From assembly GCA_016196545.1 (NCBI GenBank), contig JACPXM010000020.1:74626-138625 (forward strand): a stretch of DNA of 64,000 nucleotides. The letters run 5' to 3'. The first letter of the stretch is position 1. Each line of letters starts with the position of its first letter. The position numbers were made by a program, and so were the translations under genes. The notes below the pieces were generated by a model. That model was not told the DNA's origin. It saw nothing but the letters and a program-made list of their open reading frames with translations, and did not search any database. Of the stretch, positions 1,038 through 58,215 are shown one piece after another. The stretch is from Candidatus Omnitrophota bacterium (GTDB lineage: Bacteria > Omnitrophota > Omnitrophia > Omnitrophales > Aquincolibacteriaceae).

Positions 1038-1856
1038 ATGCCGGAACTTCCGGAAGTCGAAACGATTGTGCGTTGGCTTCAAAGAGAAATTCAGGGGTTT
1101 GTTCTTTCAAAAATCGAGATTCGATCCGAAGCGATTTTGAATTCTCCAAAACAAGAAATTGAATCAAAGACCGCCGGTACACGCATCCAGAGGGTTTTTC
1201 GAAAAGGAAAATATCTCGGCATGGATCTCAGCGCCTTTAACACCTTATGGGTGCATCTGGGAATGACCGGACAGCTTGTTTGGCTTCACCCTTCAAAGGC
1301 GCTCGATTCCCATGTTCATGCCCTTATTGAATTTGAAGGAAAATCTGAGAGGCTTGTTTACCGGGACATTCGAAAATTTGGATCCATTTTTCTTACGAAG
1401 GGGAGGTCCTCCGGGATTCCCAGAGGACTTTCGCAATTAGGACCTGAGCCCTTGGAACTGGAATCCAGGGAATTCGTGCGGATCTTTAAAGAAAGAACTG
1501 GAAGAATCAAAAGCCTCTTATTAAACCAACAGCTCCTTGCGGGACTGGGAAATATTTATGCGGATGAAAGTCTGCACCGGGCTGGGATTGATCCCCGGCG
1601 TCGCTCATTCAGAATTCCTCAAAGCCGATTAGAGGCCCTCCTGGGTTCGGTTCGCGAAGTTTTGGAGGAAGCCATTGCTTCGGGCGGATCTACGATTGAT
1701 GATTATTTGCATCCTGACGGCACGCAGGGGACCTTTCAAAAACGCCATCGGGTTTACGGACGCGAAAATCAACCCTGTCCGGTTTGCCAGACTAAGATTC
1801 GAAGGCTCGTCATTGCGGGGCGTAGTAGCCATTTTTGTCCAAGTTGTCAAAAGTAA
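1038..1856 (+). CDS. mutM: formamidopyrimidine-DNA glycosylase
   Basis: Starts 'MPELPEVE' (catalytic Pro2/Glu3). H2TH motif 'LLLNQQLLAGLGNIYADE'. C-terminal zinc finger 'CPVCQTKIRRLVIAGRSSHFCPSCQ'. The ORF-track start at 873 is an upstream extension. Confidence 0.93.
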   Translation: MPELPEVETIVRWLQREIQGFVLSKIEIRSEAILNSPKQEIESKTAGTRIQRVFRKGKYLGMDLSAFNTLWVHLGMTGQLVWLHPSKALDSHVHALIEFEGKSERLVYRDIRKFGSIFLTKGRSSGIPRGLSQLGPEPLELESREFVRIFKERTGRIKSLLLNQQLLAGLGNIYADESLHRAGIDPRRRSFRIPQSRLEALLGSVREVLEEAIASGGSTIDDYLHPDGTQGTFQKRHRVYGRENQPCPVCQTKIRRLVIAGRSSHFCPSCQK

Positions 1857-6408: not shown

Positions 6409-6645
6409 TTTGTTGAATCCTCCATAAAGACTGCTGGCCTTTCGGCCCGAAATTGTGTTATGGTATTGTGACGAAGAGCTAAAATTATAGCACCGTTCGT
6501 CATAAAATCAAGACGAAATTGAAATTCATAACCTTTTATATTAAAACAAGTTAGATTTGATGCGTCCGATAAAAAATAATAATTTAGGGGCGGGTATCTG
6601 AAATGCTTCGAACCCCCAAGGACGAAAATGAAGGAAGGTAACGGC

Positions 6646-6966
6646 ATGGCCTCTCTCGAAGATTTTAAGAAACTGGATATCAAAATCGCGGAAATTGAAA
6701 CCGTAACCCCTCATCCTAATGCAGACAAGCTTTATGTCTTAGGAATTCGTGTCGGCCAGATTCGGAAAACCCTTGTGGCCGGGATACGCCTTCATTACGG
6801 AGAAGCCGAACTTAAGGGCAAAAAGATTGTCGTGATTGACAATTTGGAACCTGCCATGATTCGAGGCGTTGAGTCTCAAGGGATGCTTTTAGCCGCCTCA
6901 GACGGTGAGCATTTGACCTTGGTGGTGCCCGAACGCCCCATTGCCGACGGGGCCAAGGTCAAATAA
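6646..6966 (+). CDS. tRNA-binding domain protein (CsaA / MetRS-C-terminal EMAP-like)
   Basis: 'DIKIAEIETVTPHPNADKLYVL...VAGI...' matches the OB-fold tRNA-binding domain pattern. ATG 6646 follows GAAGGAAGG. Confidence 0.8.
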   Translation: MASLEDFKKLDIKIAEIETVTPHPNADKLYVLGIRVGQIRKTLVAGIRLHYGEAELKGKKIVVIDNLEPAMIRGVESQGMLLAASDGEHLTLVVPERPIADGAKVK

Positions 6967-6993
6967 GCCAGTGCGACGTTTGATCCATACGAG

Positions 6994-7032
6994 TGTCATC
7001 CTGATCCCGCCCCGGGCGGGATCAGGATGACA
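6994..7032. terminator. bidirectional stem-loop between convergent genes
   Basis: Near-perfect inverted repeat TGTCATCCTGATCCCGCC / GGCGGGATCAGGATGACA around a short CCG centre. It lies between the stops at 6966 (+) and 7068 (-). Confidence 0.7.
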
Positions 7033-7067
7033 CTTTGAAGGGTCACTTGAATTTATCGAACAGAGTA

Positions 7068-7460
7068 CTAGATTGAGAATTCGGGAAGTTCGAAATATTC
7101 CAGCAAATGCTGCCAGGCGGCGTAATGGATGAAAATCAAAAAGCTGGCCAGGGCAATCAAGCTGACATTACGGGTAAAACCCCGCTCATTGAGAAGTTGT
7201 TTGAAAAGAAAGCCGGTCAGGATGGAATAACCGATACACATGGGAAGTAGGAATACAAAATCGTTAATCCCTTCGCGATAAGGAATTTGGATAATATTTT
7301 CGACAATGACCCGGCGCAGCCCGTAGGCTAGATAAAGTACGGGCCCGGCCAGAAAAAGAAAAAGAGAAGGCACCCAGCCTCCTTGATAGCCAAAAAAAAC
7401 TAAAATTCCAAACGGAACAAAATAGCGAATGAGATGATGAATTTTTTTTATTTTAACCAT
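7068..7460 (-). CDS. hypothetical integral membrane protein
   Basis: 130 aa with about 4 hydrophobic segments. No recognisable motif. Confidence 0.6.
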   Translation of the reverse strand: MVKIKKIHHLIRYFVPFGILVFFGYQGGWVPSLFLFLAGPVLYLAYGLRRVIVENIIQIPYREGINDFVFLLPMCIGYSILTGFLFKQLLNERGFTRNVSLIALASFLIFIHYAAWQHLLEYFELPEFSI

Positions 7461-7544: not shown

Positions 7545-8864
7545 ATGATTGACATTGAGACCGTAACCATGACTGATTATCGGCCCTTTCGCGCGCATCA
7601 TTACAATCCCTCCAAGATTAATCTAAGTCAGGTGATTGCTCCGCCTTATGACGTGATTTCAGTCCAAGAACAAGAGGATCTCTACGAGCAGTCTCCTTAT
7701 AATGTTGTGCGTCTCATTTTGAATAAGGAGAAGCCCGATGATTCCGATCAAGACAACCGTTACACACGCGCCCGCAATTTTTTTTCCGATTGGTGCCACG
7801 AGCAGATCCTGCTACGCGAGGAAAAACCCTGTTTTTTTCTCTACCGCCAGATTTTCCGCCGTCCCGAGACGGGAGAAAAGCTCTCGCGCTTTTCGCTTTT
7901 AGGAATTTTAAAACTGGAACCCTTTGAGAAGGGAATTGTGGTGGCGCACGAACAGACGCTGGCCCGGCCTAAGGCCGACCGGCGCAGGCTGTTGGAGACG
8001 ACCCAAACGAATTTTTCCCCGGTTTTTGGTCTTTATGAAGACGAGTCGGAAAAACTTCCCCCCCTTTTTTCGGAAATCCTCAAGGCCAAGCCTAATTTTT
8101 ATGCGGTGGAAGGGGATACGGTTCATGAAGTGTGGAAAATCTCGGAGGATTCCTCCCTTCATGAAATTCAGGAATTTATTTCAGGGAAAAATATTTACAT
8201 TGCGGACGGCCATCATCGGTATCAAACCGCACTGGATTATGCCCGGGAAATGCATCGCAAAGAAGGCGTCCCCGAAGCACGGCTTCAGCCTTATGATTTT
8301 GTGCTTATGGCGCTTGTACGGTTTGAAGATGAAGGGCTTGTCCTTCTTCCGACGCATCGGGCCGTGAAACCCTTTTCAGGATTTGATCCAAAAAAACTTC
8401 TGGAAAGTCTAAAACCGTTCTTCAAGGTCGAAGCGGTACCGGGTTCCTTTTTGCAAAAAGGAACCCGGTACCTTCAGGGTTTAACTTCTTTTGATTTGGT
8501 TCTGAAGGACGATGGCTATCACTTGACCCTCGAACATCCCGAAAAAGTAAAAGCACTGATGCCTCCCGGAAAACCGGAAATTTGGTATTCCTTGGATGTT
8601 AACTTGCTCGCTTATCTTATTTTTCATAAACTGATGGACCTTGCGCCCGAGGCATGGGAAACTCAACTTCGGTTTACGCATTCCGAGCAAGAAGTTTTGG
8701 AATGGGTGAAACGTGGAGAGGTCGCGGCTGCATTTTTGCTCCGAGCCCCGCAAGTAAAAATTTTAAAACAGATGGGTGAGGTCAAAGAACTCATGCCCCA
8801 AAAATCCACTTATTTTTATCCCAAACTGGCCAGCGGGCTTGTCTTTTACCATCACCAAGAATAA
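7545..8864 (+). CDS. DUF1015 family protein
   Basis: 'PFRAHHYNP...VIAPPYDVIS' and 'IADGHHRYQTAL' are hallmark DUF1015 motifs. The first in-frame ATG is 7545; the ORF-track start 7491 is TTG. Confidence 0.85.
   Translation: MIDIETVTMTDYRPFRAHHYNPSKINLSQVIAPPYDVISVQEQEDLYEQSPYNVVRLILNKEKPDDSDQDNRYTRARNFFSDWCHEQILLREEKPCFFLYRQIFRRPETGEKLSRFSLLGILKLEPFEKGIVVAHEQTLARPKADRRRLLETTQTNFSPVFGLYEDESEKLPPLFSEILKAKPNFYAVEGDTVHEVWKISEDSSLHEIQEFISGKNIYIADGHHRYQTALDYAREMHRKEGVPEARLQPYDFVLMALVRFEDEGLVLLPTHRAVKPFSGFDPKKLLESLKPFFKVEAVPGSFLQKGTRYLQGLTSFDLVLKDDGYHLTLEHPEKVKALMPPGKPEIWYSLDVNLLAYLIFHKLMDLAPEAWETQLRFTHSEQEVLEWVKRGEVAAAFLLRAPQVKILKQMGEVKELMPQKSTYFYPKLASGLVFYHHQE
8435..8472. repeat. type-2 palindromic element inside the DUF1015 CDS
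   Basis: Perfect 38-bp palindrome GGTACCGGGTTCCTTTTTGCAAAAAGGAACCCGGTACC. Read in frame it encodes VPGSFLQKGTRY. Confidence 0.9.
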
Positions 8865-8871
8865 CAAAACT

Positions 8872-8910
8872 TACCGGTTCCAGGTTGCCACTAACAACCT
8901 GGAACCGGTA
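8872..8910. repeat. type-1 palindromic element (REP/terminator-like), copy a
   Basis: TACCGGTTCCAGGTTG / 7-nt loop / CAACCTGGAACCGGTA, with 16-bp perfect arms. It begins 8 nt after the DUF1015 stop. Confidence 0.9.
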
Positions 8911-14714: not shown

Positions 14715-15977
14715 ATGCAATACTCCGCTTCTCTTCGCTACCTCAATTCCTTTCTAAATCTTGAGCGGATCATCGCTTCTTCCAAAAATCGCCGCTGGAA
14801 TCTTGATCGGATGCGGTTTCTTTTAACTTTATTCGGGCATCCCGAGAAAGCCTTTTATTCCGTAGTGATTGCCGGCACGAAAGGGAAGGGGTCGACGGGA
14901 TTTTTTTTAGAATCAATGCTTAAAGAAAGCGGCCTGCGAACTGGATTTTATTCTTCGCCGCATCTGACCGATCCCCGGGAGCGCATCCGGCTTAACGGAA
15001 AAATAATTTCGAAATCGATATGGACGCACGGGCTTGGTGAAATACATTCAGTTTTAAATCCAAGCAAAATTCCAGGCTCGCTGGGGGCGTTTACCTATTT
15101 TGAAATTTTAACGCTTCTGGCCGTTCTTGTTTTTCGAAGAGAAAAAATTCGAATTGGCATTTTTGAAGTGGGAATGGGAGGGCGGCTCGATGCCACGCGG
15201 CTTGTGAATGCCGAACTCGCCGTCATCACACCGATTGCCTTGGATCATCAGGCGTTTTTGGGAAATACCGTTGCCAAAATTGCGCATGAAAAAGCCGCCG
15301 TCATTGGAAAGGGCGCAACGGTGGTGATGGCTCCCCAACCGCGCGAGGCGCTTTGGGAAATCAAGAAAAGGATTCAACAACAAAAAGCACGGGCCGTTAA
15401 ATTTCAGCCCCTAGGGGCTGAAATGTCAGTGGGCCTCCTCGGAGATTTTCAGAGAATCAACGCGGCTGTTGCCTTAAGAGCCGCTCAAGCTCTGAAAGAA
15501 AAATTTCAGTTTCGTTTGACGGCTAAAAGTATCCTCAAGGGACTCCAGGCCAAAAATTGGCCTGGGCGAATGGAGCTTGTGGGCAGGGCCCCAGCCGTAT
15601 TAATTGACGGCGCCCATAATCCGGTTTCGATCGAAGCGCTTGTGAGAAATTTAAAGCGGGTGTATTCTCAAAAGCCGCGGGTTGTGATTTTTGCCGTTTC
15701 CCGGGACAAGGATTCCAAACAAATGCTTCAAATTTTGAGCCGTTATTTTAAATCGATTGTTTTGACGCGATTCGAGGGTCCTCGTTCGCAGGATTTGTCC
15801 TTATTGTCGGCCCAGGCGACCCCCTATTTTTGGCAAATATTTCTCAGCCAAAACTCGCTTGAAGCATTGCGTCTTGCGAAGAAATTGATTCCGCCTCGGG
15901 GACTGATTGTAGCCACGGGGTCCTTTTATTTGGCGGGGGAAATAAGCCGTTTCCAGAAGGGTCGCAAAAATGGCTGA
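14715..15977 (+). CDS. folC: dihydrofolate synthase / folylpolyglutamate synthase
   Basis: Mur-ligase P-loop 'VIAGTKGKGST' and the 'DGAHNP' motif. Confidence 0.9.
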   Translation: MQYSASLRYLNSFLNLERIIASSKNRRWNLDRMRFLLTLFGHPEKAFYSVVIAGTKGKGSTGFFLESMLKESGLRTGFYSSPHLTDPRERIRLNGKIISKSIWTHGLGEIHSVLNPSKIPGSLGAFTYFEILTLLAVLVFRREKIRIGIFEVGMGGRLDATRLVNAELAVITPIALDHQAFLGNTVAKIAHEKAAVIGKGATVVMAPQPREALWEIKKRIQQQKARAVKFQPLGAEMSVGLLGDFQRINAAVALRAAQALKEKFQFRLTAKSILKGLQAKNWPGRMELVGRAPAVLIDGAHNPVSIEALVRNLKRVYSQKPRVVIFAVSRDKDSKQMLQILSRYFKSIVLTRFEGPRSQDLSLLSAQATPYFWQIFLSQNSLEALRLAKKLIPPRGLIVATGSFYLAGEISRFQKGRKNG

Positions 15978-28056: not shown

Positions 28057-28114
28057 AATTTCAGACAAAAAGCAGAAGACATAAGACCAACTATTGTTTG
28101 TGTCACCTCCCTCC

Positions 28115-28156
28115 CCCCACCCGGTGTGTAAAAGCTTTTTCACACCGGGGGTGGGG
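28115..28156. repeat. CACCCGGTGTG-type hairpin element, copy 1 (terminator-like)
   Basis: CCCCACCCGGTGTG / TAAAAGCTTTTT / CACACCGGGGGTGGGG. The same arms and loop core recur at 58183-58215. Confidence 0.8.
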
Positions 28157-28239: not shown

Positions 28240-28326
28240 GGAGGAGTGGCAGAGTGGTCGAATGCGGCGGTCTCGAAAACCGTTAGGGCCGTAAGGTCCT
28301 CGCAGGTTCGAATCCTGCCTCCTCCG
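28240..28326 (+). tRNA. tRNA-Ser (anticodon CGA)
   Basis: Acceptor stem GGAGGAG/CTCCTCC plus discriminator G. Anticodon loop CTCGAAA. Long variable arm (class II). T-arm GCAGGTTCGAATCCTGC. CCA is not encoded. Confidence 0.93.
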
Positions 28327-28351: not shown

Positions 28352-29992
28352 ATGAGTTATCTTATTTTTGCGCGCAAATTCCGGCCGCAACATTTTGACG
28401 ATGTCGTGGGTCAGGAACCGATTATGACCACGCTCAAAAATTCCATTGAGCAGGAACGCGTCTCGCAGAATTTCATTTTTTCGGGGCCCCGCGGTGTGGG
28501 CAAAACTACGACCGCGCGAATTTTGGCGAAGGCCCTCAATTGTGCCAAGGGGCCGACGGTGAGCCCTTGCGGAAAATGCACGGCCTGCATGGAAATCACC
28601 CAGGGGAATTCTCTGGATGTCTTGGAAATTGACGGGGCCTCCAATCGCGGGATTGATGAGATACGGAATCTGCGCGAGACCGTCAAATTTAAGCCGGTGT
28701 CCGGCCGTTTAAAAATTTACATTATCGATGAAGTTCATATGCTTACCCCCGAGGCCTTCAACGCGCTTTTAACGACCCTGGAAGAGCCGCCCCCCCATGT
28801 AAAATTCATTTTTGCGACCACTGAGCTTCACAAGGTCCCGGCGACCATCCTTTCCCGCTGCCAGCGTTTTTCTTTTAAAAGGATAAAGACTCAGGAAATC
28901 GCCAAAAAACTGGAGGAAATTGCCAAAAAGGAAAAAATTTCCTGTGAAAAGGCGGCGCTCTTTTTGATGGCCAAGGCCGGTGACGGATCACTTCGCGATG
29001 CCGAGGGGCTTCTGGATCAAATGGCGAGTTTCGCGGAAGAGAAAATCAAGGAAGAGGATGTGCTCGCCGCCTTAGGGCTTGCCGCAGAGTCTTTGTATTT
29101 TGAGGTGCTCACCGCCATTCGCGAAAAAGATGTGCAGAAACTTTTCGAAATTACAGACGGACTTTATGATCAAGGGCGCGATATGGCGCAATTTGCCGCC
29201 GGCCTTCTGGAGTTTTTTCGCAATCTCCTACTCTTCCAATGCGCTCAGAAGCCGGAAGCATTTATTGATATGAGCGAAGAGGCGCTTGGCGAGTTAAAGA
29301 AACATAAAAGCGATTTTACGCGCGGTGAGCTTTTATTGGCCACTACCTTTTTGAATCAATTACAAAATCAAATCCGGCGGGCCTTGACATCCCCTAAGAT
29401 GCTGGTTGAAATTGTGCTTTTGAAGCTGGTGCATTTGGAGGGTTTGAGGTCCGTGGAGGAATTGATAGCTCCGCCTGGCCGAGGGGGCATCGGGCCTGGG
29501 AAAGAAAAAAATCTAAAGGATGCAGGCTTCCAACGGGAATCGGAACCTATTGGGATTTCTCAGGCCAGCCCGTCGGCTTCATCCAATTCAAATTCCAAGC
29601 CCCAGGCTCCAAACCCCGGGCAACAGTCTTCCGTCTCTTCCTCATGGCCTCAGATTATTGAATATGTCAAAACCAAACGGATGTCTACCGGCATTTTTCT
29701 TTCTGAAGCCGAACCCGTGGAAGCAGGCGCCGGAGTTGCGACGCTGGGTCTTCCCTCAGAATTCGCTTTCCATAAAGACATGCTTGAGAAGGAAGTGAAT
29801 CGCCGATTGGTGGAAGAGGCCTTTGAGACTGTCTTGGGCCAGAAATGGCGAATTTCTTTTGTGGTGACTCAAACGGAGAGATCCGAAACTCCAGTTTCCG
29901 CTCCGGCCCCTGAAGAGGCCAAAGTTTCTGAAATTATTACCCAGGCCTTGAATATTTTTGAGGGCGCGAAAATTATTCGTAAGGAATCATGA
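28352..29992 (+). CDS. dnaX: DNA polymerase III subunit gamma/tau
   Basis: Walker A 'GPRGVGKTT', zinc module 'CGKCTAC', Walker B 'IIDEVHML', and 'ILSRCQRF'. Confidence 0.93.
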   Translation: MSYLIFARKFRPQHFDDVVGQEPIMTTLKNSIEQERVSQNFIFSGPRGVGKTTTARILAKALNCAKGPTVSPCGKCTACMEITQGNSLDVLEIDGASNRGIDEIRNLRETVKFKPVSGRLKIYIIDEVHMLTPEAFNALLTTLEEPPPHVKFIFATTELHKVPATILSRCQRFSFKRIKTQEIAKKLEEIAKKEKISCEKAALFLMAKAGDGSLRDAEGLLDQMASFAEEKIKEEDVLAALGLAAESLYFEVLTAIREKDVQKLFEITDGLYDQGRDMAQFAAGLLEFFRNLLLFQCAQKPEAFIDMSEEALGELKKHKSDFTRGELLLATTFLNQLQNQIRRALTSPKMLVEIVLLKLVHLEGLRSVEELIAPPGRGGIGPGKEKNLKDAGFQRESEPIGISQASPSASSNSNSKPQAPNPGQQSSVSSSWPQIIEYVKTKRMSTGIFLSEAEPVEAGAGVATLGLPSEFAFHKDMLEKEVNRRLVEEAFETVLGQKWRISFVVTQTERSETPVSAPAPEEAKVSEIITQALNIFEGAKIIRKES

Positions 29993-30588: not shown

Positions 30589-30778
30589 TGGCCCGCTCGA
30601 GATTGTACGACATGTCGCACAATATATGTGACATTGCGACCGGCAAAATAAAAGAAGCGGCTATTGCAAAATGGAAGCAGAACCCTTGTTTACCGTATAA
30701 ATAATAGAAACAACCGTGATCAATTCAAATCATTTTTTAGCTTGTTATCGGTTTGTCTAAAACTGTTCGCACGTTACA

Positions 30779-30807
30779 TTGACATTACAGAGCGAGTATG
30801 TTATTTT
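30779..30807 (+). promoter_or_regulatory. extended -10 sigma70-type promoter inside the 5' end of the long ORF
   Basis: TTGACA (30779-30784), a 17-nt spacer ending in TGt, then TATTTT (30802-30807). If used, translation must begin downstream, at TTG 30817 or GTG 30877. Confidence 0.45.
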
Positions 30808-30876
30808 TTTTCCAATTTGAACCTTGTTTCTCTTTCCATCATCAAGAATCAGCCTAGGTTAAAGAGAAATTTTTTT

Positions 30877-33800
30877 GTGTCTTTATTTAAAGGTTTCACA
30901 AAGACCTTCATTCACCGATTCGTAGCCCTTTTGACGGCGGTTTTGTTCTCGTGCAATTCCCTTGTCTATTCCTCCGCCGTTTCCTTTCCTACAACTGAAA
31001 ATTCAGCCCTTTTTCTTAAAACTCCTGATGTGCCTTCTTCTCTTGGGAGTGTCGATGCGCTTTATCTTCCCCCCACTCCTAGCTCATTCCAGCCTTTCAT
31101 TTTAATTCAGGACGCCCATGCTCATCGCGAGGCCCAGGCGAACATTCACGGTCTATTGAATCACTTGGCCAAACAACAGGTTGTCCACGCAGTTACCGCA
31201 GAAGCCGCTTCAGGAAAAATAAATCCCCATATCTTCGATTTCTTTAAAGATTCTAAACTCAACCGCGCCGTGATTGATGGCCTGGCTGCCAAAGGCGAAC
31301 TCACCGGCGCGGAACTTTTTGCTTTGACATCTTCCCATAAAATCCCGGTCTATGGCATTGAAGATGAAGATTTATATACCGCGAGTTTTCGGTTTTTTTA
31401 TGACATCAAACAAAAACAAAAATCGAATGAAAGTATTCTTCAATCTTACCGCGGCGCGCTTTTTGATTTGGAAAAAAGGTTTTTCAACAAGGATTTAAAC
31501 CACCTTGTTCAAAAAAAGCGAGATTGGGAAGAGCGAAGGGACGAAGATCTCGATTATTTCCACGTCTTGAAAAGTTTTTCTGAAAAATATCTCAGGCTTG
31601 ATCTCTCGGACGTCCGTCATCAATTTGATTGGCCAAACTTGACGCGTTTGTTCAAAGTTGAGGAGCTGGAACAGGGAGTCCAAGGAGAAGAAACAAAAAA
31701 AGACATCGAGGTGCTCCTAAAAGAGATCGAAAAACGAGTGTACGCGCCCAAAATGAAGCGCTTTCTTTCCAAGGGATTGCGTCAGATCGAAGAGATTTCA
31801 AATCCGCGCAAATTTTTTGAAACCCTTTATGAAGAAAGCCGGCGCGCAGAAATCGTATGGGTCAATTATCCCCATTTTCTAAAATGGGCGGGGACGGTCA
31901 TTCTCCGCTCCGAGATCCAGATTCAGGGAGTGGAAAAAGAAAGGGCCAAACTGGAAGCGCGTTTATTCCGAAGATTGTCCCGCCCTGAAAAAGAAAAAAA
32001 GATTTTGGCTTTGGGCCACGATCTGGATCTTTTAAAGAGATTTTTTTCACTCGAGCTCAGTCGAGAGGATTATCACCATTATTCTAAAATCAAAAAGCGA
32101 TTGATGCCTAAAACCTTTCAGGTCCGCTTTCGTGAATTGAACCACAATTTGGAGCACCTTCCTCGGAAAACTTGGAAAGATGCAGCGCGCTTTTATCATT
32201 TAACCCTCGGGCGCGACCGCGCCTTAGTTGAAAATGCCTTGAAGATTTCTTCCTCATCTCATCAAGCCACGGTTCTTATCGCCGGCGGGTTTCACACGCC
32301 CGGTCTTGAAAAACAGCTTCGAGAAAAACAAATTCCCTATGCCGTCATTAGCCCGCGCATTCAAAATTTTGAAGACGACGGTTTTTATGAAAAGGTGATG
32401 TTGGGACAAAATACCCTCGGCGCCTGGCTTTTGACGCGGCTTGAAGCCTTACCTCCCGGCAACCTTCGAGCAAGACGCCAGGCCGTACTTTCAGAGGCCC
32501 TTTCGAAGGTCTCCCGATCCGAAATGAGAGAAGGAGTCCGTTCTTTTATCACAACCGGCTTGGCACCTCATGAAGAACTCGAGGTGCTTCGACAATTTCG
32601 AAAACAGATCGAACGAAACGATTTCCCGCTGCTGGTCATTTTTTCCGATCATCACGGGACCATTGAAAAATTAGACGCCTACATCCTCGATGCCATGCGC
32701 CGCGCCCTGCCGGACAAAGTGCCGGAATTTACATTGGATCGCCAAGAAGCCGACAAAAATCCGGAAAAGAAATTTTGGGATGTAAATGGATCTTTGGAAG
32801 AACAACTTTCATATCATGGGATAAGCCTGAATGACGACTTCGACGGAAAACTCTTTTTCGAAAATCTTGGGGATTTTATGGACCGGGGCCCAAAAGGCAT
32901 TCGTGTTTTCGAACGATCGATGGAGCTGCGCGATGCCGGTCTTTCAGAAATCGTTCTCGGAAATCATGATATTTACATCATGTTAAATCTCATGGGATTT
33001 CATCTGCCATGGTATGAAGGTTATAACTTTTATGGCTATTCGGATGTCTATGACAATAAATACGGTAATATCCAAGAGCAGGTGAGGCACTTTCGGGAAA
33101 CCCATCGCGAGACGCGTACCGCCGAGTGGTGGGCAGAGCGCCTGGCGGAATTTCGCGCTTTTCATGATCAACAGCAGAAAACATTGTGGAAGCCTTTGAA
33201 CATTTTGGTCAATGGTTGGAACGAATCCCTGGAAGAGAAAATGCCTGGGAAAGGTCTTTTCGCCCAAGTTTCAGCGAGTCTCATTACTCCCAAACAAAAA
33301 GACCTTTGGAATAAATTCCGCGGCTGGAACCTTGTTGACGTGTATACGGGCGTCAGAGCCGTTGGGGTTGTTTCCGTCCAGTGGTGGGAAAACCTTCTGG
33401 AAGATTTTGAAGAGTCGTTTACAGAAATACAAAAGCATCCTGATTATCAAGAGAACCGTCCGGCCAACCAAGCGTGGACACAAGCTATTTCTATAATGAA
33501 AAATCAAATTATTCCCCGTTTAAAACAGGATCTTCAAGGGCATCTCGAACGAGGGGAGTGGTGGTGGCGAGCTTTTGAAGCCATCCATGCCCAAAATTAC
33601 ACCTCTGCTGAATGGTTAATCATGGATTGGCTCTTTCATCCCGGCTGGGGGCCTACGGTCTTGGCCGAACTCAATGAGAGAATTAAAGACGACTCCCTAA
33701 AAGTGACGCCCGCCAATTATTTGAAAAATTCTATCTTAAAAATGATCGGGCAAACTTATCGCAATGTCTTCAAACTTCATTTGCGGGATATTTATCAAAA

Positions 33801-36800
33801 TCACGCCACGCATGCCTTTTTGCCGATCGACATGAAGACGGGCGAATTTTATTTTAAGTACCAAGGCGTTGAGTATCGCGCAAAGGGGGACTCCAATCAT
33901 CCTTCGGTATGGCAGGGGTTAAATGTCTTGGCTCAGCACATTCGTGACCCTAAACGTTCGATGAAAGAAAATTATGAGGCCCTTATTTTAATCATGAGCT
34001 GGTATTCGGATAACAACCCCATTCTCAAACCGCCGCGCGTTACTGAAGCGATCAATCAATTCGGTCCGGAGGATTTGGCGCAGGTGAATGGTTTTAATCG
34101 TTTATTTTTTGGACATATTCCTTTTCATGAATTCTATAAACTTGGCCAGGAAAAATTGGGAATCATTAGCGGCTATCAAACCGGTGGTCGGATTTTTGAT
34201 ACCGATCATGGTGCAGGCGTTAAATTCGGCGGACGCGGTGCCTTCGTTCGTGTTCAAGATGAAGTTGTCCTTCGCGGATTTGAGCATGAACGTGCCAATG
34301 GCATTAAAGATAATCCTTCTACTGTGCGGACAGTCGATGGGCCAAACGGACAAATTTCTGAGGAGGTATTATTTAGAAATCCGGGGATAAATCACGACGA
34401 TTTTTTGCCGGAATTAAGGCGCAATCTTGAAACGCGCATCACAGAACTGGAACAGCCCGTGCGTTCAGAAGTTCGAGATGAAATCCCTGCTTATATTGTC
34501 GACTTTTTAGAAAAGGAGCTCGGAATATCAGTTCAGAATCTTTCTGCAGATCAGAAAACAACGCTTGAAAAACATGTTTCCTTCTTCTCGAGTTTGAATA
34601 ACTTTCGATTTTATCCGCGTCGGGAGGTCTTTAAGCAACTTTTAGAATCTTCGAATTTTTCTATTCTGGATTCTTCTGAGAAATTCGCGACGGCAATGCT
34701 GGACAAGGGCATCTTCGATCGAGATCCGGATTCGGACATCAACGCCTATCTTCTTGGAAGCCTTCAAAAAATTTTTTCTTCCTTCCGGCCAAATAAAACT
34801 CTTTCAGAAAAAACTTTGGCGATTGGGGAAGACATGCTTAAGCATGATAGGAATTATGCCACTCAAATTTATACGGCTGAACTTTTGGGAAGTTTGGAGC
34901 CCACAGAAAAAATCATTGAAGCGCTTTTGCGCCTGGCTTCTCCCGGCATGAATAACGGCATCCGGGATAAGGCCTTCTTCAGCATGAAAGGCAATGGGAA
35001 TCGAGTGGCACCCTATTTAATTAAGCGCATCGGGATGACGGCCGATCGCCGCTCGCGCGATTATTACGTCTCTTTACTTGAAAAGGTGACGGAACCCAGC
35101 TTTCAAACTCTCGTCTGGTTTCTGGCGGGGCATCAAGATACGGCAGAAAAACTAAATGCAATTATAGAAAGTGAACCGATTGGTTTTCAGCAATGGGTTT
35201 CCTCGGCCCTTTTTATGGTTCGAGGGACGCCGAGCATTAGGCAAACTATGGATGAGCGCATCCGTCATTTGGACCTGTTCAAGGCATTTTTGGGCCGGGA
35301 AACCTTTCTGAATCTCATTCGGTTTTGGGGTTTTTCAATGGTCTCTCACTGGGCTCAAATGAAGAATGACGAATCCCAAAAAGAACTTTTTCAAATTCTT
35401 GCCGGTCTTGAACGTAAAGACCCCGCTCAATCTTCGCTTGCAGAGCTGATTCATCTTGTTCGCGCTCATCCTGAAAAATTGCGCGCCTTGCTTCTTTTGA
35501 TTACTTCCGGACATGGTTTTGATTCTGTCGGTGTTCGCGAATTGCTGGATTTAATTATTCAGAACCCCGCTCAGTCCACAGAATTAATGGCCTTTTTGAT
35601 TACTTTGCTCAGGCTTCAGCCAGTGAGTTTTAAGGAAGAGGAATTCGTTCAGGAATGGATTTCTAAATTGCTGCATAGCCCTATTGAGCCCGTCTATTAC
35701 CTTGCTCGCAAGCTGGCCATGAGCATTCCCCACCCCACGAATACCAATCCTGTGTTAGAGCAAAACATCCGGAAATTTTCAGCCGAGTTGGACGATGCCG
35801 GAAAGAATGAAAACAGACTTTTCCGTTACATTCGTCTCGAACTTCACCGCTCGCCTTCAACCGACGATCTGGATTTGGTGGCGACCATTCTCGACGTTTT
35901 GATCCGTCTACAACACCCCCATCGAGCCATGCGAATTAAAGAATCCGAGATTGACGATTATTTAGGTCATCTGGTTCGCGCGGAAGCAAAAAAAGAAGTT
36001 TATCAGGCCCTCGTTTCGCCACTTTCCCAAGGCGTTGGGCAAATTCTTAATCAGGAATTTTTGAAGGCATCGGAAAAGACGTCTTGGAGGGATTATTTCC
36101 TTGCACATGTTCCCGATTGGGAGGCGAGCCCAAGCGATGAAGCATCGCAGCCTTATTATTATGCCAAGCTCTTGATTCAGGTGCTTCAGGCCGTCCATGC
36201 TCGATATGCCTTGAATATTGAAAGGATCGCTCAAAATCTTCCTAGCGCCGTTCGTGAAAAAATCGAGCAAGGTGAAATCCTTCCTGCACTCATTGATTTA
36301 AATGAAACACGGGAAGCCAATAAAAGAATGCTTTTGGTTGCGTCTACGCTTGACCCCATAAAGGAATATTACATCAAGCGTCACCAGGCAACCGATGAAT
36401 GGGGATTTTTGGCTTATGGTTTTTATGGAAATTATAAAGAAGAGAAATTTGACCTTTTTGAACAGGACAGGCTGATTCAGACCTACACGGAAATCCTTCA
36501 AGATCGATATCTGACAAAAGAGATTCCAAAAAAAATTGAGGAAATTAGAAAGTGGGCCGAGGCTCAGAAGACGAACGGCATTCCCGAGGAATCTCCATTG
36601 CGCTCAAAGGAGCAGGTGGATCAAGCGATCCGTATCCCGTTGCAAGAGATCCTGGAAGGCCTTTATTGGTTGGTTGATGAAATGGATACAGAAGGCTTGC
36701 TTAATCAAAAGCTCGTTTCTCTCAATCGAGTTTTGCGGACAGAAAATTTTGACCTTCAGCAGGTCACCAATATTCTGACGATGATGCAAGATGAAGCCAC

Positions 36801-39800
36801 CCGACTTTATGATTTTTTTAATTTTAATTTTTCCACATTCCCGGAACATCTTGCCTTAAGTTTAGGGCGCGATCGCATCAATCCTCGTTTTTTAAAGCCT
36901 GGAGACGAGAAAAAAACAGACGAAGAATGGGCAAAGCGCGTCCGCGAAACCTTTCTCGGTGACCTTTGGGCCGATGAGCGGAAAATTTTTTACTTCAATT
37001 CGTATCTTAGTCAGCTTAGACAACTCCTGGTCGAAGGCTTATATCCTTGGAGATTTAAGTATATCCGGTTGGCCAAGGCGGCGTTGCCACTTGATCTGAT
37101 TACCGAAGAAAACGTTGATCAGCAGGGCGTCTCTGCCGTGCGAACCGGCACGAAAGCCCACGAGCTTTTTTGGCTGCGCAAAAAAGGATTACCCATTCCG
37201 CCCCTGGTGGTTCTGCCCATCGACTTGCCTGACCGCGTTAAGATTGATCCCACCAATCCTATTTTTAGGCAAAAAGTTTTGGACGCTATTCTTCATTTGG
37301 AAAAGGCCTCGGGCAAAATATTCCCGTTTCATCTCTCTGCTTTAAATGAAGAAGAAGAAAAGAAAGTGCGAGAATTTCGCGCTGCAAACCAAATTGAACC
37401 TTCCGGGCCAATGCTGAATTTTTCAACGCGTAGCGGGTCTCTAGAATCGATGCCGGGCATGATGGATACGATTTTAGACCTGCCCTTTAATGATCAAATT
37501 GTTGAAGAGCTTGTCAGTAAAGATGAAGACTTGCATTTCGTTTTGGACACGTACCGGCGTTTTTTAGCCTCTTTTGGAGCGGCTCATTATGGCATGGATC
37601 GCCGCGCTTTTTCTGACATCATCGATGCCATGAAACAGGAAGTGACCAACCGCAAAGCAAAAAAATCAGAAATCACGATCGCGGAGTTTGAGGTTGAAGA
37701 TTTACAAAAAGTTGTAAATAAATTTAAGCAATACATCAGTGTGAGACATGCTGATTTTTTAAAAATAGATCCTTTCTCGCAGGTGACGCATGCTGTCAAA
37801 GCCATTTATGATTCTTGGGAAAGTGAAGGGGCTAAAGAATTTCGAGAGAAATTTGGCCTTTCGCCACGCTGGAGAACGGGCGTTACGCTTCAAGCCATGG
37901 TATTCGGTAACGCAGGTTTGGATTCCGGAACAGGCGTTATTTTTTCTAGCGATCCTGAATCCGAAATCTACAGTCCTTATGGAACATGGAAATGGAATTC
38001 TCAAGGAGAGGATGTGGTGGGAGGGTTGGTAGGGATTTTTCAACCCCTTAACAAGCTTCATGGAGAAAATAGCATCGAAGTGGTTCATTCTGAATTTTTT
38101 GATGAAATTACGGACATTGCCCGAGCCATTCAAAGATTAGGAAAAGTTCCTCAGGATATAGAAATCACAAGAGAGCAGGGGAAAAATTGGGTTCTTCAAA
38201 CCCGCGCTTTAGTCAATACGGGACACGGAATTAAGAAAACCATTCGACTTGATAAACTGCCGGAAGGAAGCGTTGCCAAGGTCGCCAGTCAAGGCGTCCC
38301 CGTGTCGCCTAACGCAGCGGTAGGAAGATTGCTGGATGCTCGAAATATGACAGGTCTAGAGCTCAGGTCTGAAGTGAATAAGTTAAGGAAATGGATGAAT
38401 GATCATGGAGAGGAAACGTTGGACATTATCCTTGCCTTTGACTACGTCACCGATCAAGACGCGGCAGAGAAATTATATCTAGAAAATGTCAAAGGCCTCA
38501 TTAACTCGAAAGTGGGAATCAGCACTCATGCCAGTTTGGTTGCAGGGCGCCTGGGGCTCGCGTATGTGAGCCAGGTCGACATTGTTTTTGCTTCCGAGGA
38601 TAAGGATGCGACGTTAGGGGGTAAGAAAATCGATTTTGGTATAAATAGTCCTATTATTAGCATCGATGGGTATTCGCCGTCAAAGAGTGAGACAAGCGGT
38701 CAGGTCCTATGGGGAGAACTGCCTTTTGATTATGCTGTGACCACTCCTTTGCCAGCAAATGGCAATGGAAACGGCCGCTCGGAGGTTCGCCCCCTTTCAT
38801 TCCCGGCGCGGGTGGCGATTAGTCTTGGGGCATACCGGATTAATAAAAAGGGAATAGTTTCGGATATTCTGGAATCCAATTTTGATGATTCTCTGGAAGT
38901 GGCAGTGAATACAGTGCACAATCGAATTTTCGATGCCTATTTGCGAGGTCTCATCGGCAATCCGAATATCTCTTTGACCGACCTTTACGGTGTTGAAAGT
39001 GTGGAACGTTTTTTCTCCTCTCTTCATAATCCTTTTCACGGCCGGTTCCCGGCGTCCTCTTTGAACTTGAAAGAAGAAAACGGTCAGGCCGTCCTGGAAA
39101 TTAATGGTCATGAAATCAGAATTCATGAACAGGTTCCCGAGTCCGCGACGTTGCGGCGATTTCAAACCGAAGTTCTAATCGATCTAAGTAATATGAATCT
39201 TACCGACGAGAACCCTGGCTTTCGGGCAGCGCGACTCAGAGAACTCCAAAAAGAGGCCGAGCTTAAACACGTCATTGATTTTCGAGGTGATGAAGACCCT
39301 ACAGAGGATCCCGATGCTTCTTATCATGCCTTGGTTTCTCCTTTGACGCTTGCCTCAGCCCACATTCTTCGTGTCGTGGAAAAGAAGTTTAATGGCGATT
39401 TCGATTTTGTCAGCGGTTTACTCGGCGCTCGGCCGATCACCGGCGATTCGGGAAAAATCAATTTTCGCAAATCAAGCCTGCTCGAATATGACATCGCTAA
39501 GGGAGCTGGAAGTGCCCTGTTGTCCCTCATTCCAAAGCAGGATTCCCGTTTTAAAGCAGTGGCCAAAGAACTTAAAGCTATTAAGTCCGACAAACATCTG
39601 ACGGATAAGGAAAAGGAGTCGAAAAGACAGAAGCTTATTTATCAAAGCGTGAACCAGCATTTTGAAAAAGCAGCGCAGGAAACTCCCGATATCCTGCGTT
39701 ACGCCGACGAGGAGCATTTGAGCTCTCTGCTCGTGATTCGGGATTCTCAAGTTGTCGTTTTTGATAGTCAAGCCACGGACATCCGTGAAAACGGACAGGT

Positions 39801-42391: not shown

Positions 42392-42424
42392 CGGTTCCAG
42401 GTTGCCGGCGGTAACCTGGAACCG
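42392..42424. repeat. type-1 palindromic element, copy b
   Basis: CGGTTCCAGGTTGCC / GGC / GGTAACCTGGAACCG, with one G-T mismatch. It lies 110 nt after the giant ORF stop and is followed by a T-rich tract. Confidence 0.85.
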
Positions 42425-44368: not shown

Positions 44369-45467
44369 AAGTCACAAGGCGACAAAGTCACAAGTCACAA
44401 GAGAACAAGTAAAAAGGATTTTAACTTGTGTCCTTGGGACCTTATGCGCCGGCGCTCTTTTTTTCTCTGGTTGCGCTGCCTACCACCCCCTGGTTTCCAA
44501 AATGCCCGCCCCGCTTCCGGAATTTTATCGGCACTATTATGATTATCCCACCTCGGATTTTACGAGCACCTTGATTCAAACGCAGGACGGCGGAAGTTAT
44601 GTGATCAAGACCTATGAATTTCCTTTCAGTCTTCCTCAAGATATTGCGCTGGAAAGTCCGGAGGCCTTTAAACGGAATACCGAGGAGCTCGCGAAAACCG
44701 ATCAAAAAACCGCGAAAGATCAAAAGTTAAGGTACTTGAACCGTGTGGACCTTTATGTTCCTAAAAAAATCAAATCCGGGGAAAAACGTCCCGCCATTCT
44801 TGTCTCCCCGATTTTAGGGGGGAACATGGTGGTGGATCGGTTTTGCAATTATTATGCGGGACGCGGCTACGTGGCCGCACTGGTTCACCGTAAGCGCTTA
44901 CTTTGGGACGACGGGCGCGAAGATATTCAACAAATGGAAGATTACATGCGTAGCTCTATTATTCGTTTGCGTCAAGCCGTTGATTGGCTTGAAAAACAGC
45001 CTGAAGTGGATTCCGAACGGCTCGGGGCCTTTGGAATCAGTTACGGTGCGATTCTTCATTCGGTGTTAGCGGCGGTAGAGCCGCGTATTCAATATCATGT
45101 ACTGGCCATGCCGGCGGCCCCGCTGCCGGAAGTTATGATGCATTGTCCGGATTCGGCTTGCGTCAAAATCATGAAACATGTAAAGGAAAAATACGGATGG
45201 TCGGACGCGAAAATTTTTCTGGATTTAAAGCGCGTTCTCAAAACCGATCCTATTCGTTTAGCGGGCGCCATTAAGCGCGATCGCGTGGAAATTTATATCG
45301 CGCTCTTTGACCGGGTGGTGGGCGCCGGCCGGTCTTGGAAACTTTGGCATGACATGGGCAAACCCAGACTCAGGCTTTTACCCTTTGGTCATTATGGCGG
45401 TATTTTCGTATTTCCTTATTTACAAACGCAGTCATTCTCAGCCCTCAAAAAGCACCTCCAAAACTAA
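44358..45467 (+). CDS. alpha/beta hydrolase lipoprotein (dienelactone-hydrolase-like)
   Basis: ATG 44358 overlaps the upstream stop (ATGTGGAATAA). Lipobox-like 'LFFSGC'. Nucleophile elbow 'GISYG'. ORF-track start 44298 lies inside the upstream gene. Confidence 0.7.
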   Translation: MWNKSHKATKSQVTREQVKRILTCVLGTLCAGALFFSGCAAYHPLVSKMPAPLPEFYRHYYDYPTSDFTSTLIQTQDGGSYVIKTYEFPFSLPQDIALESPEAFKRNTEELAKTDQKTAKDQKLRYLNRVDLYVPKKIKSGEKRPAILVSPILGGNMVVDRFCNYYAGRGYVAALVHRKRLLWDDGREDIQQMEDYMRSSIIRLRQAVDWLEKQPEVDSERLGAFGISYGAILHSVLAAVEPRIQYHVLAMPAAPLPEVMMHCPDSACVKIMKHVKEKYGWSDAKIFLDLKRVLKTDPIRLAGAIKRDRVEIYIALFDRVVGAGRSWKLWHDMGKPRLRLLPFGHYGGIFVFPYLQTQSFSALKKHLQN

Positions 45468-45524
45468 CAAAACCTACCGGTTCCAGGTTGCCGATGGCAA
45501 CCTGGAACCGGTAGGTTTTGTTAG
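45464..45524. terminator. type-1 palindromic element, copy c: 61-bp perfect palindrome acting as a probable bidirectional terminator
   Basis: CTAACAAAACCTACCGGTTCCAGGTTGCC / GAT / GGCAACCTGGAACCGGTAGGTTTTGTTAG, with 29-bp perfect arms. TAA (45465-45467) of the + gene and TAA (complement of 45521-45523) of the - gene both lie in the arms. Confidence 0.85.
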
Positions 45525-48341: not shown

Positions 48342-48803
48342 ATGAAACGCGCCAGGGAAATTGTAATTTCGGTATTTGTCATGGGCTGGTTCGCTCTTTT
48401 CCATTATGAGGCGCTCCGGCCACTTTATCTCACGCATTGGCTCAAACGCGATTTGCCCAAAACCCCTCTCTTTTTTCCCTCCAACGGTTGGACCATGTAT
48501 TACAGTATTGGCAATTTTTGGATGACGGCCGAGGTGTATGGGCAAAAGGAGGAAGGGGGAAAGCCCGAACGAATTCCTGCAGAAAAAATTTTTAAACTCG
48601 CCTTTTTAAAGGCAGATTTCTTCCGGCGTAACACAATCGGAAAGATCCTTGAGCCTGAAGCCCAAAAGTCCTTTTGTGAATATCTGAAACGGCAGCTTCC
48701 GGAATACCAATCCTTTGCGGTCATGAAATCCGGCTATACTCAGCTTGTTCCTGAGCGCAGTGAAAAGCAATATTTTCCACCCTCCTTTATATGTTCAAGA
48801 TAA
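48342..48803 (+). CDS. hypothetical membrane-anchored protein
   Basis: 153 aa with one N-terminal TM helix ('IVISVFVMGWFALF'). Its stop overlaps the start of the next ORF by 13 nt. No known motif. Confidence 0.55.
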   Translation: MKRAREIVISVFVMGWFALFHYEALRPLYLTHWLKRDLPKTPLFFPSNGWTMYYSIGNFWMTAEVYGQKEEGGKPERIPAEKIFKLAFLKADFFRRNTIGKILEPEAQKSFCEYLKRQLPEYQSFAVMKSGYTQLVPERSEKQYFPPSFICSR

Positions 48804-49624
48804 CAAAAAATCGAAACCCAAAAGGTACCCGGTTCCCGCAATTAGGGAACCCGGTACCGGTAGGCTTTGATCTGACGCCTTTCCGCGTCGCGATTGCCTT
48901 TTGTTTCGCGTTTCATATGCTCCCCTCCTTTTTATTTTTTAAAGAGAACTATCTTGCAGGCTCCTTCCGGTTTCAGGAACATGATTTTTTCCCGGGTTGG
49001 CTTCTTGCCCTTGCGGATCAGAGCCCAGACCTGCTTCTTATAAGCCTTTTGATGTTGATGATGATATTTTGGTTTGGATTTTTGATGGGATTCAAAACCC
49101 AAATCAGCGCTTTCGCTTTGACGCTTTGTGCCTATTTTTTTTATGCGCGAAACGCGTTTTATCTGAAAACGCTGGCCTGGGACATGCTTTTGGTAACGCT
49201 TGTGCCGTTTTGTGGGTTTGCCTCACACCCCCTTTTGTTGAGGCGGCTTTTGAGGCTGCAATTTACCTTCATCTATATGTATGCAGCATTGAATAAAATC
49301 ATTCCCGGAAATTGGATGCGGGAAAACCCTCTTCATTATCTCATGCACTATCCGGATCAAAGTGTGATGCGAGGGGAGGCCCTCAAGGGGCTTTTCAGCT
49401 TCCGGCCCGAATTATGTTATTTGCTTGGAATTCTAATCGTCAGCTTTGAATTCATACTTCCCGTGCTCTTATGGATTCCGCGCTGGTCTCGATGGGGAAT
49501 CGCAGCCGGGATTTTGTTTCATTTGATGCTCTCGCTACTCTTTCATGTCCCGCTTCTTTTCCTTTTGCTTTTCGCCGCCTACGGCCTGCTTTTTGGTCTC
49601 TCGGTACCAAGTTGTCGGCGCTAA
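48791..49624 (+). CDS. multi-pass membrane protein, HTTM/SdpB-like (tentative)
   Basis: 'DLTPFRVAIAFCFAF' resembles the first HTTM helix and is followed by about 6 more TM segments. ATG 48791 is the only ATG upstream of that helix. Confidence 0.55.
   Translation: MFKITKNRNPKGTRFPQLGNPVPVGFDLTPFRVAIAFCFAFHMLPSFLFFKENYLAGSFRFQEHDFFPGWLLALADQSPDLLLISLLMLMMIFWFGFLMGFKTQISAFALTLCAYFFYARNAFYLKTLAWDMLLVTLVPFCGFASHPLLLRRLLRLQFTFIYMYAALNKIIPGNWMRENPLHYLMHYPDQSVMRGEALKGLFSFRPELCYLLGILIVSFEFILPVLLWIPRWSRWGIAAGILFHLMLSLLFHVPLLFLLLFAAYGLLFGLSVPSCRR
48824..48858. repeat. type-2 palindromic element at the 5' end of the HTTM-like CDS
   Basis: GGTACCCGGTTCCC / 7-nt loop / GGGAACCCGGTACC, arms matching 13/14. 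Followed by GGTAGG as in type-1 copies. Read in frame it encodes GTRFPQLGNPVP. Confidence 0.85.
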
Positions 49625-49703
49625 TTCCCACCTCCTCCTTTTTGAAGTTGATTCTTAAGAAGGCATCCCCTATCATAAGGCCGTTTTAGCCTTCAGGGAG
49701 GTA

Positions 49704-49943
49704 ATGATGCGATCTATCCTAGTTGCCATTTTCAGCACGCTGCTTCTATCTTCTTGCATCCCGTTCCGGTCTCAAGCTCCGGATTCCGAAGTCGATACTC
49801 AATTGGGAGTGGAGGCCGACGAAGAAGCTGTGAATGCCCAAGACGCGCTTAGTGATTTACGCGAGGAGAAACTCAAAGAGCAACAGAGATCTTTGGAGCG
49901 GCATATCACAGACACTGGTTACAATCCATCCGTGAATGAATAA
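49704..49943 (+). CDS. small lipoprotein
   Basis: Signal peptide plus lipobox 'LLLSSC'. AGGGAGG at 49695-49701 favours the second ATG (49707). Acidic helical mature part. Confidence 0.7.
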   Translation: MMRSILVAIFSTLLLSSCIPFRSQAPDSEVDTQLGVEADEEAVNAQDALSDLREEKLKEQQRSLERHITDTGYNPSVNE

Positions 49944-51696: not shown

Positions 51697-51705
51697 CAAA
51701 CCCTA

Positions 51706-51740
51706 CTGGTTCCAGACTAAAGCCGGCAACCTGGAACCGG
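51706..51740. repeat. type-1 palindromic element, degenerate copy d
   Basis: The right arm GGCAACCTGGAACCGG is intact and the left arm is reduced to CTGGTTCCAG. It lies 10 nt after the OMP stop. Confidence 0.7.
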
Positions 51741-58182: not shown

Positions 58183-58215
58183 CACCCGGTGTGAAAAGCA
58201 TTTACACACCGGGTG
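58183..58215. repeat. CACCCGGTGTG-type hairpin element, copy 2 (terminator-like)
   Basis: CACCCGGTGTG / AAAAGCATTTA / CACACCGGGTG. It begins 8 nt after the response-regulator stop. Confidence 0.8.

Follow-up and report, generated by a model that had tools for sequence, protein, structure and literature searches.

In-frame palindromes with common arms in three coding regions of a Candidatus Omnitrophota genome

How do three palindromes with the same arms come to lie inside three coding regions without interrupting any of them? We address this question in a stretch of 64,000 nt, part of a 202,760-bp contig, from a Candidatus Omnitrophota metagenome-assembled genome (MAG; locus tags HYZ85_), hereafter the window, which has a G+C content of ~48% and carries ordinary housekeeping genes. 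Palindromic repeats that are translated within genes are documented mainly in Rickettsia. An initial annotation of the window described the three elements, named type-2 palindromes, as in-frame insertions of 11–13 residues in a DUF1015 gene (copy 1), in a giant open reading frame (ORF; copy 2) and in the gene of an HTTM-like membrane protein (copy 3), likened them to Rickettsia palindromic elements (RPEs) and connected them with a second family, type-1. The three copies belong to one family: their outer arms are identical within this genome, they are read through in frame, they occupy variable protein segments, and they are restricted in lineage.

Three palindromes with identical outer arms

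In the window, the pattern GGTACCSGGTYCC...GGRACCSGGTACC occurs solely as the three palindromes, which measure 38, 35 and 35 bp (copies 1, 2 and 3, Table 1). Re-reading of the window confirmed their sequences and coordinates exactly as first annotated, including the perfect 38-bp palindrome of copy 1 and the 14-bp perfect arms of copy 2. The outer arms are identical over 10–13 nt among the three unlinked loci, and their conserved outer 10 nt, GGTACCGGGT, stand in inverted orientation with 18, 15 and 15 nt between them. The inner stem and loop vary from copy to copy and self-complementarity is kept, TCC/GGA versus CCCC/GGGG being a compensatory pair. The asymmetric loops imply that type-2 copies are present in both orientations.

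To place these numbers against chance, the arm motif was matched to the window with at most two mismatches, which gave 8 matches compared with 1.6 expected, a count reached by none of 100 shuffles. Seven of the eight lie inside the palindromes (the six arms and a reverse-strand re-match of the copy 3 left arm), and since the only outside match, at position 872, carries two mismatches, the exact type-2 arm is never found alone in the window. A single motif resembling uptake sequences or HIP1 was rejected, given that half-sites never stand alone there. Six of the ten GGTACC sites of the window fall in these elements.

Folded as RNA, copies 1, 2 and 3 reach -31.0, -34.8 and -26.2 kcal/mol (z -5.5, -6.4 and -3.7) and rank 5th, 3rd and 13th in a sliding-window hairpin census of the whole window; among its eight strongest hairpins two are coding, and both are type-2. 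With arm ≥10 and loop ≤12 as limits, 10 perfect inverted repeats were counted in the window, as opposed to 1.4 ± 1.0 in simulated sequence. A scan of the window with Rfam 15 assigned no family to the type-2 hairpins, its single match to reach the gathering score being a tRNA at 28240–28326. A GC-rich hairpin is present in each of the three copies, and no T-run follows any of them on either strand. Without a T-tract, the type-2 elements should not terminate transcription.

The translations agree with those given initially: VPGSFLQKGTRY for copy 1, VPGPPTSGTRY for copy 2 and GTRFPQLGNPVP for copy 3. Two frames are used, copies 1 and 2 reading VPG...GTRY and copy 3 reading GTRF...GNPVP, and a selected peptide motif was rejected because the copies are read in different frames. 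When both orientations are considered, six of six frames are open in copy 1, five of six in copy 2 and four of six in copy 3. Such openness is unremarkable for GC-rich sequences of 35 nt, and an adaptation to stop-free reading in all frames was therefore rejected as well. The claim that no frame is interrupted holds outright for copies 1 and 2, which lie well inside long ORFs, while for copy 3 it holds only with a start at ATG 48791.

Sites of the copies in their host genes

Copy 1 is the strongest hairpin of the DUF1015 gene in a hairpin-energy scan. In an alignment with 25 orthologues, the segment between two conserved anchors counts 23 residues, compared with a median of 24 and a range of 20–29, and the residues that the orthologues carry in it are unrelated, so that length is matched and sequence is not. 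Because its length is normal, copy 1 occupies a hypervariable segment of ordinary size. In the AlphaFold2 (AF2) model of the protein (mean predicted local distance difference test score, pLDDT, 86), residues 298–309 form a short helix and a loop between strands 293–298 and 315–320, and the block 301–310 has the lowest internal 10-residue confidence of the model, with a pLDDT of 54. At its left end, copy 1 is translated as A-V-P, three residues that the orthologue P0008 likewise has (EAVP).

The closest relative for DUF1015, a syntenic locus from Logan run SRR22388038 (L006) whose DUF1015 is 69% identical to that of the window, is without the type-2 sequence and carries a different perfect hairpin, GGTCTGACCCC-GAAGTAA-GGGGTCAGACC, at the same codon position. 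In both DUF1015 genes it is at nt 884–885 that the strongest hairpin begins (-30.9 kcal/mol in the window and -24.8 kcal/mol in L006). Reverse-complemented, the inner stem-loop of L006, CCCC-GAAGTAA-GGGG, agrees with that of copy 2, CCCC-CTACTTC-GGGG, at six of the seven loop bases, a match whose chance probability we estimate at below ~1%. The energy scan found no hairpin at the copy 1 site in the DUF1015 orthologues L039, L040 and L041 (54–56% identity). An exact-protein look-up returned no record of the full DUF1015 protein in the Logan assemblies, from which we infer that perfect palindromes may break k-mer assemblies. Look-ups with two ORFs of the window likewise gave no record.

The giant ORF is open from position 30664 (30664–42282; 3801–3872 aa). 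Comparison with its HMMER homologues places copy 2 in the linker that joins a conserved AFRFV.P.L motif to the C-terminal module of ~190 aa, likewise conserved; this linker varies in length and is shorter here than in most homologues. The module itself also exists as independent proteins of 176–271 aa and forms the C-terminal end of further giant proteins. The possibility that such hairpins mark a gene-fusion relic or an internal terminator was rejected, since a 50%-identical giant homologue is equally fused without a hairpin and DUF1015 is a single conserved family.

For copy 3, the position of the start codon is decisive. The NCBI start of the HTTM-like gene, ATG 48917 (P0121, 235 aa), would leave the copy upstream of the coding sequence. 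Three lines of evidence favour ATG 48791, which overlaps the stop of the upstream 153-aa gene and gives a 277-aa product that includes the conserved first hydrophobic segment. Firstly, the alignment with P0122 (45% identity), the only homologue, extends through FRxxIAxCxAFHM, which precedes the NCBI start. Secondly, the locus of P0122 (L007) is syntenic, and its start codon likewise overlaps the stop of an upstream gene, of 151 aa. Thirdly, the 277-aa product is called in the Logan assembly of run SRR12113416. Judged from these alignments and gene calls, the NCBI start is probably too far downstream, apparently pushed there by the hairpin, which would be a case of gene calling affected by such an element, and copy 3 is most likely translated.

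A contig of the same Logan run (L044) is 100% identical to window positions 48574–51431, including copy 3 and its mismatch, so that copy 3, the only one of the three with an independent assembly, is at least not specific to one assembler. L007, the closest relative for this gene, is without copy 3. Compared with it, the window carries 54 extra bases (18 codons), and copy 3 lies inside them.

A net insertion is therefore seen for copy 3 only, and the description of the elements as inserted stretches of 11–13 residues is not supported for copy 1, where the segment has 23 residues against a median of 24, or for copy 2, where the linker is shorter than most. The DUF1015 orthologues do have residues at these positions, which speaks against an insertion as far as length is concerned; that those residues are unrelated agrees with the initial view. 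Based on these comparisons, extra sequence is visible at one of the three sites, whereas the other two suggest replacement. All three host positions are non-conserved, being either linker or tail. With no length gain at two sites and another hairpin in L006 where DUF1015 of the window has copy 1, simple insertion does not fit, and overwriting by template switching or gene conversion is a possible alternative.

Table 1 Coordinates of the type-2 palindromes, their host genes and related hairpins (window positions unless L006 is named).
Feature	Coordinates	Strand	Description
Type-2 copy 1	8435–8472	.	GGTACCGGGTTCCTTTTTG and CAAAAAGGAACCCGGTACC; perfect 38-bp palindrome, 19-bp arms, no loop
Type-2 copy 2	41670–41704	.	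14-bp perfect arms GGTACCGGGTCCCC/GGGGACCCGGTACC; 7-nt loop CTACTTC
Type-2 copy 3	48824–48858	.	14-nt arms GGTACCCGGTTCCC/GGGAACCCGGTACC, one C:C mismatch; 7-nt loop GCAATTA; followed by type-1 tail GGTAGGCT
DUF1015 gene, host of copy 1	7545–8864	+	NCBI MBI3316682.1, 439 aa; PF06245, E 2e-85; P0001 100% identical
Giant gene, host of copy 2	30877–42282	+	NCBI MBI3316697.1, 3801 aa; P0123 100% identical; PPDK_N and Gp_dh_C domains
HTTM-like membrane protein gene, host of copy 3	48791–49624	+	277 aa from ATG 48791; PF05090
L006 DUF1015 hairpin	L006 1404–1432, extended arms 1392–1444		11-bp arms, 7-nt loop
Type-1 palindrome	8872–8910		Intergenic, directly after DUF1015 stop codon; -32.9 kcal/mol; absent from syntenic L006
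Type-1 palindrome	42392–42424		Intergenic, after giant-gene stop codon
Type-1 palindrome, full 61-bp form	45464–45524		29-bp arms, A-tract and T-tract, between convergent genes; -55.3 kcal/mol, z -11.8
Degenerate type-1 copy	51701–51741		Intergenic

Type-1 relatives and hairpins in other genomes

The 64 kb hold three type-2 and four type-1 copies. All four copies of type-1 (core ACCGGTTCCAGGTTGCC) are intergenic, while all three type-2 copies are inside an ORF. The arm sequence ACCGG(G)TTCC, which the initial annotation had found common to both types, proved to be a real and unlikely resemblance: of 20,000 13-mers, random or shuffled, only 20–41 resemble the type-1 arm TACCGG(G)TTCC as closely as the type-2 arm does (p ~0.001–0.002). 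The type-1 tail of copy 3, ACCGGTAGGCT, proposed at the same time as a bridge between the families, was also found as described. The right end of copy 3, GGAACC-CGGTACC-GGTAGGCT, corresponds to the type-1 right end, GGAACC-GGTAGGCT, with seven extra bases. The arm similarity and this right end indicate kinship of the two families, with copy 3 apparently bridging type-2 and the intergenic, terminator-like type-1. The full 61-bp form of type-1 looks like a bidirectional terminator.

Other hairpins of the window were recorded separately. A third intergenic family, with the core CACCCGGTGTG...CACACCGGGTG and also containing ACCCGGT, is present at 28113–28156 and 58183–58215, downstream of a GGDEF gene and of a response-regulator gene. 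A perfect 24-bp palindrome of a different family, ATTTCAGCCCCTAGGGGCTGAAAT, lies at 15401–15424 inside a Mur-ligase/FolC-like gene (14715–15977). Another perfect palindrome, with 21-bp arms, -41.7 kcal/mol and a sequence unrelated to types 1–3, is found at 6992–7034, between the convergent tRNA_bind gene (6628–6966) and ORF 7068–7460(-).

The distribution among relatives is lineage-specific. Besides the absence of a hairpin at the copy 1 site in L039–L041 and of copy 3 in L007, the type-1 copy that follows the DUF1015 stop codon is missing from L006, and the 15-kb syntenic locus of a more distant MAG (L043) contains no such hairpins.

Relatives have coding hairpins of their own. In the syntenic relative L042 (Logan SRR13608701), which has 50% identity in the giant protein, the strongest hairpin lies inside the dnaX inter-domain linker at 1342–1380. 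It measures 39 nt, GGTACCTGCCTCCTCAG-CCCCT-CTGAGGAACCAGGTACC, has GGTACC, itself palindromic, at both ends and is read in frame as VPASSAPLRNQVP, and KVP occurs three times around it. The linker is no longer than that of the window dnaX, which is without a hairpin. A function of the L042 hairpin as a frameshift stimulator was rejected, as no X XXY YYZ slippery site lies upstream. The window dnaX (28352–29992) has an A7 run, GAAAAAAAT, at 29504–29512, just after DnaX domain III; if one A is lost, the reading becomes AAA ATC TAA and stops at once, and by analogy with the dnaX genes of E. coli and Thermus this run may be a tau/gamma recoding site.

In L007, a hairpin at 2291–2346, AGAGCGCCTAACAAAAC...GTTTTGTTAGGCGCTCT (arms ~17–20 bp, one mismatch), is located in the N-terminal, signal-peptide coding region of a ceramidase-like gene and has CTAACAAAAC in common with type-1. 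The signal peptide of the L007 protein is ~16 residues longer than in L042. In the window, a hairpin at 48163–48191 was left uncounted as a further coding copy, since it probably precedes the actual start codon of the ceramidase-like gene.

Pattern scans were also carried out beyond the relatives. Among genome contigs only five loci were found, all unrelated, with terminator-like hairpins in Saccharibacteria, a Pseudobdellovibrionaceae MAG and Luteitalea. In L001, L004 and L005 (Saccharibacteria MAGs), L003 and L010, arms matching GGTACCSGGTYCC, mostly flanked by AAA/TTT, follow directly after stop codons, and these hairpins of unrelated phyla apparently act as terminators; one Saccharibacteria MAG holds three of them. 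Of the 31 loci returned by the metagenome scan, most belonged to an unrelated heptad-like repeat of high GC and none came from a relative of the window; the scan of viral sequences found nothing. The heptad-like repeat is dispersed through L009, L011, L012, L014 and most of L016–L038 (Joint Genome Institute, JGI, metagenomes, G+C ~0.65). Its units are GGTACC GGGTTCC AGGTCCC GGGTACC TGGCACC TGGGACC CGGTACC, with conserved flanks and many contigs from one sample set, and it has ACCGGGTTCCAGGT in common with the type-1 and type-2 arms of the window.

Origin of the elements and known systems

Identical arms at three unlinked loci, self-complementary interiors, lineage restriction and differing sites in relatives argue for a dispersed family copied between loci. 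We favour, with moderate confidence, a small dispersed hairpin repeat family that resembles repetitive extragenic palindromic (REP) sequences and their hairpin-forming doublets (REPINs), or a minimal miniature inverted-repeat transposable element (MITE), and that is tolerated in, or overwrites, permissive coding linkers. As part of the same joint reading, and held about as firmly, type-2 would derive from, or share ancestry with, the intergenic terminator-like type-1 palindromes. Copies would pass between loci by a hairpin-dependent process, the copier being either a single-strand transposase of the HUH or REP-associated tyrosine transposase (RAYT) type, or template switching or gene conversion from another copy, driven by microhomology. 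Under purifying selection, coding copies would persist solely if in frame, stop-free and in structurally permissive segments, such as a surface connection (DUF1015), an inter-domain linker (giant protein) and an N-terminal tail (HTTM-like protein). They would be transcribed and translated there as 11–13 arbitrary residues, and would be mobile elements carried as neutral passengers.

Several observations weigh against this explanation. Two of the three sites, and the dnaX of L042 too, show no net gain in length, which is unlike simple cut-and-paste or copy-in insertion. Target-site duplication is not consistent: a 6-nt direct repeat, ACTGCT, flanks copy 2 only, and none surrounds copies 1 or 3. 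The 64-kb window encodes no transposase or RAYT gene and allows three copies only to be counted, and the element is smaller than any well-characterised MITE. Finally, the L006 hairpin, with an unrelated stem at the same DUF1015 site, could reflect a site-specific function instead.

The unchanged length in DUF1015, in the giant-ORF linker and in the L042 dnaX is what overwriting without a transposase would produce, an origin that we consider possible, though rather unlikely. A linker with microhomology (e.g. GTACC in Val-Pro or Gly-Thr codons) would be copied over from another copy or from its own opposite arm, and template switching or gene conversion would both make the hairpins and keep them uniform, replacing sequence at constant length and restoring perfect pairing. 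Template switching is reported to create perfect stems, multi-base compensatory changes and inverted loops (PMC8794818). In concordance with this, the copy 1 palindrome is perfect over 38 bp, centre included, and the window and L006 have perfect hairpins with different stems at the same site, the L006 loop being inverted relative to copy 2. The A-V-P that copy 1 shares with P0008, the self-palindromic GGTACC and the repeated KVP of the L042 dnaX linker point in the same direction. On the other hand, copy 3 lies within a net 54-bp insertion, and template switching confined to one locus cannot account for 13-nt arms that are identical at three unlinked ones. The model therefore needs transfer between loci as well, and with this addition overwriting comes near to the dispersed family that we favour.

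A more specific proposal, which we regard as doubtful, is that the hairpin family spreads by overwriting coding linkers: copying from another copy would be primed by microhomology, template switching would keep the stems perfect, and the same DUF1015 site (residues ~298–309) would have been rewritten repeatedly by different members in sister genomes. If true, selfish palindromes could colonise genes independently of a transposase, rewriting 11–13 residues at constant protein length, and this would be a source of abrupt change in linker sequence.

We consider it improbable that selection keeps the hairpins at these positions for a function as mRNA or DNA structures, for instance for processing or stability through RNase III or RNase E, for ribosome pausing at domain boundaries or as barriers to antisense transcription. 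Their high stability (-26 to -35 kcal/mol), perfect stems and compensatory differences between copies would suit such a function, as would the strong hairpin that two sister genomes keep at the same DUF1015 position with a wholly changed stem. However, the absence of a hairpin from DUF1015 in L039, L040 and L041 and of copy 3 from L007 indicates that these genes do not need one in general, which makes a site-specific mRNA function less likely. No slippery sequence or U-tract lies alongside, no Rfam family matches, and the copies occur in both orientations, judging by their asymmetric loops. All copies are at domain or segment boundaries, a location explained equally well by tolerance.

The inverted, conserved outer 10 nt and the share of the window's GGTACC sites that fall in the elements would also suit arms that serve as targets of a DNA-binding protein dimer and lie in genes by chance; candidates are regulators, nucleoid or partition proteins, and restriction-modification components with GGTACC or CCSGG as recognition sequence. 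This is very improbable, as the conserved parts are 18 nt apart in one copy and 15 nt in the two others, protein binding would need no self-complementary interior such as the copies have, and isolated half-sites do not occur. An assembly or library artefact, such as fold-back chimeras, can hardly be the explanation: although the source is a MAG, chimeric reads can yield perfect palindromes and Logan has no record of the complete DUF1015 protein, all three copies are in frame between flanks of collinear, orthologue-matching coding sequence, they have a specific arm sequence in common, copy 3 recurs base for base in the independent assembly of run SRR12113416, and relatives from other runs bear analogous coding hairpins.

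Translated palindromes of much smaller size in free-living or episymbiotic Omnitrophota would widen the phenomenon known mainly from Rickettsia. These elements also go beyond textbook insertion, because host proteins are not lengthened and sister genomes have a different hairpin at the same site, and could show co-evolution between repeats and coding sequence.

The comparison with RPEs, made in the initial annotation, stands in part. Like RPEs, the type-2 elements are palindromic, lie inside coding genes, are read in frame in fold-compatible segments and have kin in non-coding DNA, here type-1. In the passages of PMC10969869 that draw on Ogata et al. 2000 and 2002, RPEs are described as ~100–150 bp long, with a family-specific conserved peptide, and as net insertions of 30–50 residues. 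Type-2 elements, at 35–38 bp, are about a quarter of that size, have only 10–13 nt of arm in common, use two frames without a common encoded peptide, leave the protein no longer in two of three cases, and reside in Omnitrophota as opposed to Rickettsiales. Different in size and in peptide, and ambiguous as to insertion, type-2 elements resemble RPEs in behaviour without belonging to them.

Mobile hairpins that resemble terminators, and MITEs, such as SPRITE of S. pneumoniae and the Correia elements (PMC10969869), recall type-1, which with its A-tract, GC-rich stem and T-tract looks like a bidirectional intrinsic terminator, and hairpins with GGTACCSGGTYCC-matching and mostly AAA/TTT-flanked arms come after stop codons in Saccharibacteria and other MAGs. 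Type-2, in contrast, has no T-tract, lies inside genes and is much shorter than described MITEs; of the MITE features it has inverted arms, and a direct repeat at copy 2 only. Hairpins made by template switching (PMC8794818) have in common with type-2 the perfect stems, the multi-base compensatory differences, the inverted loop and the replacement at constant length. That process acts within one locus, whereas type-2 arms are found at three unlinked loci, so that copying between loci is also needed.

REPs and REPINs, which are mobilised by RAYTs (PMC3116915, PMC3337134), differ from type-2 in that they are overwhelmingly extragenic, whereas type-2 lies in an ORF in three of three cases, and in that the 64-kb window has no RAYT gene. 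A REP population comprises tens to hundreds of copies in a genome, and its cognate RAYT gene, an IS200/IS605-like Y1 transposase, usually has REPs on its flanks. REPINs have conserved ends and unique but hairpin-forming spacers (PMC3337134). Type-2 elements likewise fall in the size class of a single REP and combine conserved ends with a variable, self-complementary spacer; as with REPs, several related families are present in one genome and are lineage-specific, and type-1 is extragenic with a GTAG/CTAC foot. By this analogy, we consider REPs and REPINs the closest counterpart of the type-2 family.

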